A stretch of DNA of 64,000 bases from an uncultured bacterium. GTDB lineage: Bacteria; Fermentibacterota; Fermentibacteria; Fermentibacterales; JCC-6. The stretch covers positions 5,041 through 69,040 of the forward strand of contig CBDVBK010000007.1 in assembly GCA_965372215.1 (NCBI GenBank), given 5' to 3'. Under the pieces are notes generated by a model. The model made no database searches. It saw only the letters and a program-made list of their open reading frames with translations, and was not told the DNA's origin. Every line of letters begins with the position of its first letter. Within the stretch, counting starts at the first letter, position 1. Shown here one piece after another: positions 26,032 to 28,133 of this stretch. The position numbers were made by a program, and so were the translations under genes.

Positions 26032-26844
26032 CTATCTCAATTCAGGGTAATAGCGACAGAGAATCTCGATCTCTTCTTCTGTCAGATTTGTTAGAAGATC
26101 CTTTTTACTTTCCACAAGACTATTAATGTATTCCATATTAAATAGTTTCTTCTGATTATGCAATTCATGGAAAGACCTTTCCTTAATCATCTGGTGATCG
26201 TCAATAAAGAAATATTTGTACAGACGGGGGTTGCTTATCCTGAACAGCTCGGCGCCCATTTCAAGGTTAAGCCTCATAGGGACGGCAGGCGCGCCGTTCA
26301 CTTTTCCGTAACGCCTTATCTGTCCAATCTTTTCATAATTGAATTCCTTCTGGTAATAATTACAATGACGCGGATTGATCATCATGCACAAATCAGTACA
26401 GCCCAGAAGATCATGACCCAGGATAAAAGCCTTCCTGAAAAGAGAAAGGAGAACTGTTCTGCTCTCACCATTTGTCAGTGAATCATCCACTGCCAGACCG
26501 GATAATTCGCATAGGAGGGAATCTTTTCTCCGGATTCTGCCAATCTCATTATTGAAGAGTTCGTTGATCGGAAGTCTGTCTTCAGACTCCTGAATTATTG
26601 TCAGTGTTCCACAGACTTTCCCGTTCTTCTTGACAATTATCAGAAAACTTGTTGGCAGAAGGTTATGGAAGCTTATCTTCATCAAAGAAGGATCCGGTTT
26701 TTGAAGATCGGATGATAGATAAGTAGTATATATTAATTTGAATGCTTCTTTTATCTCATCTATTCTGTTGGGAAGCACGGCATCTGAAATCACATCAACC
26801 GTATCCAGAGATGATTCGCTTAACTTCTTCAATCCGGCTGTCAT
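26032..26844 (-). CDS. N-acyl amino acid synthase-like acyltransferase (FeeM / LuxI autoinducer-synthase superfamily, GNAT fold)
   Basis: The LCELSGLAVD block resembles the E-x-S-R/G-L-A-V core of FeeM/AHL synthases. About 270 aa. ATGA overlap with the upstream rSAM gene. Confidence 0.5.
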   Translation of the reverse strand: MTAGLKKLSESSLDTVDVISDAVLPNRIDEIKEAFKLIYTTYLSSDLQKPDPSLMKISFHNLLPTSFLIIVKKNGKVCGTLTIIQESEDRLPINELFNNEIGRIRRKDSLLCELSGLAVDDSLTNGESRTVLLSLFRKAFILGHDLLGCTDLCMMINPRHCNYYQKEFNYEKIGQIRRYGKVNGAPAVPMRLNLEMGAELFRISNPRLYKYFFIDDHQMIKERSFHELHNQKKLFNMEYINSLVESKKDLLTNLTEEEIEILCRYYPELR

Positions 26845-28013
26845 TTAGACCTGTAATTTCTTTTTCTGGAAAGAAGTGTTTCTTCATCATTGGATATTCT
26901 GTCAGCTGGTGCTGAATATCGGTTCCGGATTGCAGCCAGCCTTTTGCGAAATCTCGCAATGCAGGAATATAGAACAGCTTCAGCGGATCCTTTGAGCCGC
27001 TCCGGTGACTGATTGCAGTCGGCACAAATCTGACCGGGCATATACTGTTCCTTGTACTGCATTAAGGTATCAATTGAATCATGAAGGATATTGCCCAGAG
27101 GGTTCCGCACAGACTGATCATTACAGCAGATCGAACTTCCATCCGCGGCGATGAAGAAATTCGCGTTCCAGAGGCAGGGAAATCTGAAACTCCGAATAAG
27201 GTCTGCTATCTCGCCTATGCCTGAGAAAAAGCGCTTCAGTACAAGTTTCATCCGGATGTTTACTCCATTAACAGAACGCCCGTTGTACCTCCTGAACAGG
27301 TCTTTGTACATGTCGACTCTGACAACAGTGCTCCGGATCAAGCCTGACCGGTTACTGGTCGCGGGAAACATCACCAGTTCAATCTCGCCAAGTCCTTTCC
27401 CGCGGGCAAGCCTCGTAAGATAGTCAACTGTATCAGCGAAATCATGTCTTATGATCTCAATCTCAGGCGGAGAGATATGAAACATCAGTTTTGAGAACCG
27501 GCCCTTTGCTCTGAACTCCATTGCCTTCTCAACACCGGGCAGTACTTCGGACAGAAGTGCTTCTCCCCTGTTGCTGTCACCCATCATAATCAAACCGTAT
27601 GATTCAGGTTTTACTGTAGGCAGTGAAATAATCAGTGAGATATCATTGCAGAGAAATGGATCCATTATCCCCGGCGCATTCAGTCTTAAACCGTTTGTTA
27701 CAACGGAAACTTCAGGAGGTGGAACTGCGGAAATATTCCAGCCCCTGAGCATATCACCGAACATCTCCATTCTATGATTGAACAAAGGGTGAAGTGTTGC
27801 CTCACCATCGCCTGAATTGGCTATGTAACGCACATAAGTTCCTGATTCAGCTGCTTTCAATACCCGTTGAATAAGGGTTTTCGTAACGATATATGGCTGA
27901 AACTCTCTCGGACCGCTGTATCCGGTTTCATTTATACCGCACAGTCTGCAGGAGTAGTTGCATATACCATGCACAAGGCTGTTGTTAATTGATATGGGAC
28001 GGCGTGTTTTCAT
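26841..28013 (-). CDS. Radical SAM enzyme with a C-terminal SPASM domain
   Basis: CNYSCRLC (CxxxCxxC) near the N-terminus. The C-terminal Cys-rich region CCNDQ...CADCN is typical of SPASM auxiliary clusters. Confidence 0.8.
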   Translation of the reverse strand: MKTRRPISINNSLVHGICNYSCRLCGINETGYSGPREFQPYIVTKTLIQRVLKAAESGTYVRYIANSGDGEATLHPLFNHRMEMFGDMLRGWNISAVPPPEVSVVTNGLRLNAPGIMDPFLCNDISLIISLPTVKPESYGLIMMGDSNRGEALLSEVLPGVEKAMEFRAKGRFSKLMFHISPPEIEIIRHDFADTVDYLTRLARGKGLGEIELVMFPATSNRSGLIRSTVVRVDMYKDLFRRYNGRSVNGVNIRMKLVLKRFFSGIGEIADLIRSFRFPCLWNANFFIAADGSSICCNDQSVRNPLGNILHDSIDTLMQYKEQYMPGQICADCNQSPERLKGSAEAVLYSCIARFRKRLAAIRNRYSAPADRISNDEETLLSRKRNYRSK

Positions 28014-28133
28014 GCAACTTTTCCGCTGATCACAAACTATCTGAAATAACTCAGGTGTTTCTTATACAACTTGAATTAAATTCATTCGATTATTTAGGCA
28101 AACAAATCCTTATTTCAAGAGCAATATATACAT

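Follow-up and report, generated by a model that had tools for sequence, protein, structure and literature searches.

A radical SAM enzyme family joined to FeeM-type N-acyl amino acid synthases by gene fusion and adjacency

The window considered here is the whole analysed stretch of DNA, 64,000 nucleotides (nt) from an uncultured bacterium of the Fermentibacterota (GenBank assembly GCA_965372215.1, contig CBDVBK010000007.1, positions 5,041 to 69,040 of the forward strand). Its minus strand carries, in order, a TPR/lytic transglycosylase gene (28134-30404), a gap of 120 bp, a gene for a radical S-adenosylmethionine enzyme (rSAM), a gene for a FeeM-family N-acyl amino acid synthase (NAS), a gene for a B12-binding radical SAM enzyme (B12-rSAM), a FIST-domain gene, and a hybrid PAS histidine kinase gene. 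The rSAM gene and its pairing with FeeM are the subject of this report. The features of the pair and of the upstream gap are listed below, with lengths in amino acids (aa) and open reading frames given as ORFs.

28014-28133, minus strand: putative intergenic promoter region, with a -35 box TTGAAA (28118-28113), a -10 box AATAAT (28094-28089) and a palindrome (28084-28072); no precursor ORF.
26841-28013, minus strand: rSAM gene, 390 aa; catalytic domain at about residues 1-365, then a C-terminal helix and, made by a frameshift, a short tail.
27939-27962, minus strand: CNYSCRLC, the CX3CX2C motif of the radical SAM [4Fe-4S] cluster, residues 18-25.
27015-27176, minus strand: abridged SPASM or Twitch-like segment, C280-x11-G292-x3-C296-C297 ... 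C330-x2-C333.
26805-26876, minus strand: scar of the fission, with two insertions of 1 nt in comparison with fused relatives, in CTTCTTTCCAG (26876-26866) and GAATCATCTCTGG (26817-26805).
26795-27025, minus strand: ORF of 76 aa, not a gene, which holds a fossil linker frame.
26032-26844, minus strand: FeeM-family NAS gene, 270 aa; its start overlaps the rSAM stop (ATGA).

The partner gene product matches the Pfam family PF21926 with 125.5 bits (cut-off 27) and the crystallised FeeM (PDB 2g0b) with E = 1.8e-7, which places it in the FeeM family. Database searches with the rSAM ORF returned 115 homologues (best E = 1e-254), of which 29 are single chains of ~650 aa in which a FeeM domain comes after the rSAM domain. 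Such fused ORFs occur in the Fermentibacterota (L008, L092, L093), Desulfobulbia (L010), Victivallaceae (L007), and Planctomycetota (L003, L084). In unfused loci, in all that can be judged but that of Paenibacillus, a FeeM-like gene adjoins the rSAM gene on one side or the other, as in Desulfomarina (L081), Desulfopila (L004), Nitrospina (L089, with two FeeM genes), and the loci L086, L088, L090, and L091. The Cytophagia locus L009 has a weak FeeM/T_hemolysin-like gene next to rSAM. Nineteen homologous loci, drawn from a species-representative genome set and from metagenome assemblies, were used for the small-ORF clustering described below; a FeeM-like gene is fused or adjacent to rSAM in 17 of these and in all three of the loci added later (L092-L094), covering at least five phyla. 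One locus (L006) begins at a contig edge, so that FeeM adjacency is not judgeable there.

A profile search of 1.84 billion cluster representatives revealed further architectures. In P0137 the domain order is reversed, FeeM preceding rSAM, and a hydrophobic, apparently membrane-spanning C-terminal domain follows (residues 625-857, ~230 aa, with several transmembrane stretches as judged by eye), which hints that the pathway works at the membrane. An additional N-terminal domain is present in P0136, while in P0139 a GT2/GT21 glycosyltransferase is fused to rSAM and a FeeM gene lies directly downstream. Only 31 representatives reach E <= 1e-30, about 15 of them full length, and the next full-length rSAM-like proteins score at most 81 bits; the rSAM family is small, sharply bounded, and without a curated model. 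Fusions that arose independently and in both orders argue strongly for a joint role of the two domains in one process. Together with the adjacency, they show rSAM and FeeM-type synthase to be one evolutionary unit, and a functional coupling between them is very probable. No description of an NAS that is paired with, or fused to, a radical SAM enzyme was found in the literature, the coverage of which was incomplete, so that this is an absence of evidence.

In the window the two domains are encoded by separate genes. The junction was compared with the fused genes of L092 and L093 (81-84% identity) by three-frame translations and DNA alignment, and CTTCTTTCCAG and GAATCATCTCTGG each hold one additional base relative to them. 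Past the first insertion the rSAM frame finishes in a new tail, RKRNYRSK*, and the fused genes already contain, in another frame, the ATG that starts the FeeM ORF. Of the three frames, only the third still gives the ancestral linker, EKEITGLNDSRIEEVK (26819-26866), and there it forms the C-terminal part of the 76-aa ORF. A preliminary description of this DNA had set that ORF aside as an out-of-frame overlap of both genes; the overlap is confirmed, but it is not pure chance, since the C-terminal part is the former rSAM-FeeM linker frame. As a gene the ORF was rejected: it is interrupted by stops in L001 (85% identity), it belongs to no conserved small-ORF family, and the fossil linker frame explains it.

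The same split is found in P0001 (97% identity), in P0002-P0006 and P0008, and in L001, where the first indel is different. Since independent assemblies share it, a sequencing error was rejected as its origin. A programmed frameshift was also rejected, as two successive +1 shifts would be required and both ORFs have intact domains and an ATGA overlap. Judged from the alignments, the separate rSAM and FeeM genes of the window derive from a fused gene by recent fission, and the ATGA stop/start overlap would permit coupled translation. The AlphaFold2 model of the fused protein P0013 has two well-folded domains (predicted TM score, pTM, 0.71) joined by a disordered linker of 40 residues (366-405), and a cut at that point would therefore be tolerated. 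With such a linker a fixed domain interface in P0013 was rejected, and the model is silent on channelling. The locus represents a gene fission caught soon after the event, with the old linker still legible in the third frame.

The rSAM belongs to the radical SAM superfamily by its CX3CX2C motif, CNYSCRLC, which is invariant in 103 of 103 aligned full-length homologues; a partial TIM-barrel fold and a family-model match were also counted. The Pfam Radical_SAM model gives 24.9 bits on the window protein (cut-off 29.5). Past the barrel, C280, C296, C330, and C333 are conserved in all 103 homologues and C297 in 93% of them; these homologues have no further conserved cysteine there, and the X5CX3C part and the last cysteine of the seven-cysteine SPASM motif are absent. 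The Pfam SPASM and NCBIfam SPASM families have no match to the window rSAM even at E <= 10, and there is a faint spiro-SPASM match with E = 0.07. The rSAM relatives cover just positions 1-48 of the 67-position Pfam SPASM model, below its cut-off. A profile alignment to CteB (5wgg), weak and non-significant, puts C280, the G...C hairpin, and the CxxC pair on the first half of its SPASM domain. No NCBIfam family, the curated SPASM enzyme families such as anSME and PqqE included, matches at E <= 0.001 (best TIGR04317, 16 bits against a cut-off of 380), and PDB sequence searches gave no significant match. A link at the sequence level to a characterised radical SAM family was therefore rejected, the Pfam, NCBIfam, and PDB searches having returned nothing significant with either the single sequence or a 66-sequence profile.

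The predicted fold, on the other hand, belongs to the SPASM/Twitch group. Its structural neighbours include anSME (the best), SuiB, ChlB, CteB, SkfB, BtrN, MoaA, BlsE, DesII, SpeY, and the lipid enzyme GDGT-MAS. The Twitch domain is a shortened form of SPASM with one auxiliary cluster (PMC9012708). The rSAM model has strands at residues 286-288 and 293-295, and the hairpin Cys...GX4C (C280-x11-G292-x4-C297) together with C330-x2-C333 is sufficient for one cluster. By this definition the enzyme is Twitch-like, with an abridged SPASM and probably a single auxiliary cluster whose geometry is deduced from the cysteine pattern, and the label "SPASM-type" given in the preliminary description holds in the loose sense of a shared fold; with five cysteines and no SPASM model match, the domain is no full SPASM. 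In comparison with the Twitch enzymes BtrN, MoaA, SkfB, BlsE, and SpeY, identity is at most 19% with no sequence-level family match, and the rSAM family has an extra invariant cysteine (the CC pair) and a long C-terminal helix. We know of no Twitch enzyme that has been reported fused to an acyltransferase. The top structural match, anSME (PDB 4k36), has a seven/eight-cysteine SPASM, two auxiliary clusters, and a protein substrate, whereas the present rSAM has five cysteines, no SPASM match, and 16% identity to it.

A non-peptide substrate had been regarded as unusual for this enzyme class. This does not hold, as the structural neighbours include BtrN, MoaA, BlsE, DesII, SpeY, and GDGT-MAS. The unusual feature is the rSAM/FeeM partnership itself, rather than a non-peptide substrate.

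On balance we favour, with a confidence only a little above even, the view that a modified N-acyl amino acid, and no ribosomal peptide, is made by a two-part enzyme in which the rSAM supplies the radical chemistry. The substrate of the rSAM would then be, with about the same modest confidence, either the N-acyl amino acid or an intermediate on FeeM. Free amino acids are what FeeM-type enzymes N-acylate, as described for TyzA (PMC10404671), and here the FeeM part would condense a fatty acyl group, from acyl carrier protein (ACP) or coenzyme A (CoA), with an amino acid. The rSAM part would make a 5'-deoxyadenosyl radical and take a hydrogen from the lipo-amino acid, and the second electron would go to the cysteine-ligated auxiliary cluster, as in BtrN-type Twitch enzymes. 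The BtrN cluster has four cysteine ligands and has been proposed as the electron acceptor in a two-electron oxidation, and fully cysteine-ligated Twitch or AuxI clusters have been proposed to take the second electron in two-electron oxidations (PMC9012708). The net outcome would be an O2-independent two-electron oxidation. As to the reaction itself, a desaturation or related oxidative change of the amino-acid head group is our best guess, and a tentative one, as is a two-electron oxidation in general. The adjoining B12-rSAM would probably add a C-methyl group. B12-rSAM enzymes methylate lipids and in one reported case desaturate them, a precedent for radical SAM enzymes replacing O2-dependent lipid modification (bioRxiv 10.1101/2025.10.20.683597).

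The closest functional parallels are the Tyz system (M. tuberculosis TyzABC) and the NasY systems of Stieleria and others. Besides an NAS, these contain a desaturase of the nitroreductase family that depends on O2, a ThiF-like ATP enzyme, and methyltransferases; their products are N-acyl-dehydrotyrosines and tyrazolones as well as stieleriacines and thalassotalic and kyonggic acids (PMC10404671, PMC12479983). Common to them and the present loci is a FeeM-type NAS core clustered with further genes, which in the described systems often overlap and encode an oxidative tailoring enzyme, one that depends on ATP, and methyltransferases; the counterparts here are the rSAM, the B12-rSAM or a class I methyltransferase, and in some loci an amidotransferase-like gene of the ATP-dependent PP-loop type. 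The present loci differ in that the partner is an O2-independent rSAM, often fused to the synthase. Nitroreductase and ThiF genes are absent from all loci with Pfam tables, and the likeness is one of function only. Going by taxon names, the hosts come mostly from lineages that we take to be anaerobes (Fermentibacterota, Desulfobulbia, Kiritimatiellae, Victivallaceae). With no nitroreductase or ThiF and mostly such hosts, an O2-independent counterpart is the most economical specific guess, and the head-group oxidation would be the anaerobic equivalent of the reaction of the O2-dependent flavoenzyme TyzC.

Among single enzymes, FeeM from environmental DNA (2g0b), an N-acyl tyrosine synthase, is in the same Pfam family as the window partner, which scores 125 bits and, unlike FeeM, has an additional C-terminal region of ~75 aa. 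We know of no radical SAM enzyme in the Fee gene cluster. A tie of the NAS to exosortase/PEP-CTERM systems was considered and rejected, as the dedicated NCBIfam model gives no match, with NF011425 alone matching at E <= 1, and no exosortase is present among the 30 window genes scanned.

Several points weigh against this interpretation. Fusion shows one shared process, not which domain acts first or on what, and the substrate, acyl donor, amino acid, reaction type, and reaction order are all deduced. For the parallel with TyzC the grounds are analogy and the lack of nitroreductase genes; homology is not among them. Non-cysteine ligands could supply a second cluster, and we infer the five-cysteine geometry only. 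The top structural match of the rSAM, anSME, modifies a protein. Also, no FeeM gene adjoins the most distant homologue, that of Paenibacillus macerans (41% identity), which lies beside a kinase, a PK/HpcH-like gene, and an O-methyltransferase; this implies that the fold can serve other small-molecule pathways.

The order of the two reactions may also be the opposite. It is possible, though rather unlikely, that the rSAM acts before FeeM by making or altering a building block (a non-standard amino acid or amine, or an acyl-ACP/CoA) that FeeM then joins, with the fusion channelling the product. The rSAM is N-terminal to FeeM in most fusions, although this does not fix the order of reactions and the reverse domain order exists too (P0137). 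Many small-molecule rSAM enzymes use free amino acids, the neighbouring B12-rSAM resembles TsrM, a methylator of free tryptophan, and the Paenibacillus homologue manages without any FeeM. However, in known NAS pathways tailoring comes after acylation (PMC10404671), and the loci give no sign of a separate route to an unusual amino acid.

A less probable arrangement still is a system for a ribosomally synthesised and post-translationally modified peptide (RiPP), in which the precursor would be encoded elsewhere in the genome, modified by the rSAM, and acylated by the FeeM-like GNAT as in selidamide-type lipopeptides. Most of the closest structures are maturases of peptides or proteins (anSME, SuiB, ChlB, CteB, SkfB), and GNAT acyltransferases are documented in RiPP clusters; the selidamide-type clusters likewise encode a GNAT-fold fatty acyltransferase together with peptide-maturation-type enzymes (PMC8784127). 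Those clusters carry adjacent precursor genes, however, and the rSAM/FeeM loci have no conserved one. The six-frame search of the gap (28014-28133) gave no ORF of at least 20 aa on the coding strand, and the sole ATG-started ORF there has 7 codons and is not conserved, in agreement with the earlier statement that no credible small ORF is present. That account had named a conserved small ORF beside the rSAM gene in homologous loci as the observation that would speak against it. It was looked for in the 19 loci by all-against-all clustering of 179 ORFs of 20-120 aa that lie no more than 2 kb from the rSAM/FeeM pair and for the most part outside long ORFs. No conserved family was found: every cluster was either a chance pair or a shadow, on the antisense strand, of the conserved rSAM N-terminus; the method is blind to peptides shorter than 20 aa or without sequence conservation.

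The enzyme itself also lacks the signs of a RiPP maturase. The CX3CX2C motif starts at residue 18, so there is no room for an N-terminal recognition domain of the RiPP recognition element (RRE) or PqqD-like type, and no further Pfam domain was found in the rSAM at E <= 10, a divergent RRE elsewhere still being conceivable. Peptidases or transporters typical of RiPP clusters do not recur across the loci examined. The recurrent partners are instead glycosyltransferases, methyltransferases, and reductases, and the FeeM part matches genuine free-amino-acid NAS enzymes. With neither a precursor gene nor a recognition domain at the locus, a RiPP system is quite improbable. A third idea, that the rSAM matures the FeeM domain or another protein as anSME does with sulfatases or the activases with glycyl-radical enzymes, is barely credible, since fusions with a glycosyltransferase or methyltransferase and a separate FeeM gene suit a maturase and its target less well than a pathway, FeeM enzymes need no such partner for activity (PMC10404671), and the fused alignment (A4) has only one invariant cysteine (C501) in the FeeM half, where a modifiable motif was not looked for.

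The preferred interpretation is therefore still the modification of an N-acyl amino acid. The preliminary description had offered an acyl amino acid or a precursor encoded elsewhere as the substrate; fusion and adjacency with FeeM strongly favour the first and disfavour the second. Its account of the gene, of the motif, and of the missing precursor ORF stands, while its SPASM assignment and its view of what is unusual for the class have to be corrected.

The gap upstream of the rSAM gene is conserved among close relatives and looks like a promoter/operator, judging from its predicted sigma70-like -35 and -10 boxes. Just downstream of the -10 box there is a perfect 13-bp palindrome, TGAATTTAATTCA (28072-28084, minus strand), which is kept as TGAATTGAATTCA in L001 and L008 and is partly deleted in L093. 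It may be the operator for a regulator of the operon. A riboswitch or other RNA in the gap was rejected, as no Rfam match was found anywhere in the window.

Downstream of the pair the operon continues with three genes.

24541-26022, minus strand: B12-binding rSAM, 493 aa, canonical motif CALTCSYC; Pfam B12-binding and Radical_SAM.
23321-24532, minus strand: FIST-domain sensor protein, Pfam FIST and FIST_C; its link to the pathway is uncertain.
21235-23328, minus strand: hybrid PAS histidine kinase/receiver by Pfam; 8-bp overlap with the FIST gene.

The B12-rSAM has the same B12-binding and radical SAM architecture as TsrM, its best PDB match (E = 1e-34), and as TIGR04072 ("lipid biosynthesis B12-binding/radical SAM protein"), its best NCBIfam match. 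At 318.1 bits against a cut-off of 360 it is a relative of TIGR04072 rather than a member. The gene recurs beside the pair in L001, L002, L003, and L005 (Fermentibacterota and Planctomycetota). In the Ca. Aegiribacteria locus L092, with its 81% identical fusion, the B12-rSAM has shrunk to a 155-aa C-terminal remnant (4177-4644) while FIST and kinase are intact, and the enzyme is thus optional and dispensable in a close relative. It is read as an accessory tailoring enzyme, probably a C-methylase.

Other genes recur beside the pair. Class I methyltransferase fusions are found in P0047 and P0061, and glycosyltransferases, including a GT1-FeeM fusion, are repeatedly present, as are NAD-dependent reductases. 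Taken together, and as annotated, the recurring partners resemble a small-molecule tailoring set. A relative of the WbuX-like PP-loop amidotransferases (380-455 aa; 92-101 bits, cut-off 203) is encoded in L084 (8859-10004), L089 (1073-2260), and L003 (4392-5759). It lies directly upstream of rSAM in L084 (Planctomycetota) and L089 (Nitrospina), has no counterpart in the window, and may be another enzyme of the pathway. In Desulfomarina profundi (L081) a 59-aa rubredoxin gene (9715-9894) is located 106 bp upstream of the rSAM-FeeM pair, and the rubredoxin is a candidate electron donor for the rSAM.

A dense paralogous locus, L094 (1-11542), comes from metagenome ERZ724098, the same sample as L091. 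It encodes a SPASM rSAM, a GT1 (UDPGT/EryCIII)-FeeM fusion, two more FeeM proteins, two sigma-54 activators whose genes flank the FeeM genes, a 2-oxoacid_dh-type acyltransferase, and a GT2/GT21-rSAM fusion, with an AttH-like gene at the locus end. This gene content suggests glycosylated acyl-amino-acid products.

Genes for signal transduction border the pair in 12 of 18 loci. FIST and hybrid kinase genes come after it in L002, L010, and L092 (Fermentibacterota and one Desulfobulbia genome), so that the module of rSAM-FeeM, FIST, and kinase is common to two phyla at 46-58% identity. In L003 (two), L084, L086 (two), and L091, a family of ~750-aa sigma-54 activators with 41-48% mutual identity over the full length is encoded beside the pair. 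The activator gene is on the opposite strand upstream of the pair in each, the second copy being downstream in L086 and further upstream in L003, and the N-terminal region of ~400 aa is helical with no Pfam match. Plausible sigma-54-type -24/-12 boxes precede the biosynthetic genes in L086 (TGGAACAGTGTTTGCT) and L084 (TGGCGCGAGGCTTGCT).

A further reading, which we regard as unlikely, is that the rSAM-FeeM enzyme is the synthase of a new class of diffusible signals derived from acyl amino acids in anaerobes, with the adjacent regulators as receptors: FIST and the hybrid kinase in Fermentibacterota and Desulfobulbia, and the sigma-54 activators in Planctomycetota-type loci. If true, radical chemistry would take the place of LuxI chemistry in a circuit resembling quorum sensing. 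However, relatives of the FIST-kinase pair with 55-57% identity lack the rSAM-FeeM pair in L095 and L098, the adjacent regulators could just control the operon, and the glycosyltransferase and membrane-domain fusions suit a membrane lipid at least equally. In a metagenome scan, close relatives of FIST-kinase were found beside an AbgT transporter or HD-GYP regulators, and a dedicated receptor was rejected on that ground. Since such relatives exist without the pair, the link is not exclusive and the receptor role is speculative.

Some observations concern the surrounding genes. The listed TTG start of the TPR/lytic transglycosylase (SLT) gene 28134-30404 (minus strand) overlaps the upstream TPR gene (30328-31248, minus strand) by 77 bp. 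Its homologues align only from residue 12-13, and the true start is therefore probably further downstream. The gene at 31241-34912 (minus strand) encodes 1223 aa with faint TPR-like Pfam matches, is 85-89% conserved in L001 and L008, and is located between two lytic transglycosylase genes. The region 3360-20869 (minus strand) encodes HypF, an Mbh/Mrp-type membrane-bound hydrogenase set (MbhD/E, Proton_antipo_M, a NiFe large subunit-like protein, NADHdh), and subunits like sulfhydrogenase beta/gamma, which fits an anaerobic fermenter. No Pfam family matches an ORF of 535 aa at 6792-8399.

N-acyl amino acids occur in bacteria as lipids and signals. What is new here is an N-acyl amino acid gene cluster with a radical tailoring partner. 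Radical SAM enzymology gains a family with sharp bounds and no curated model, whose members have a Twitch-like domain and probably act on a lipid. For genome mining it is a caution that a SPASM-like rSAM without a precursor need not be an orphan RiPP enzyme, and that fusions in relatives can reveal the true partner. With one to three genes the system is also a compact target for heterologous expression. The oxidative tailoring described for Tyz and NasY requires O2 (PMC10404671, PMC12479983), and the rSAM-FeeM pair suggests an O2-independent route to modified lipo-amino acids. The pairing thus points to an undescribed pathway for such molecules, mostly in lineages known as anaerobes.

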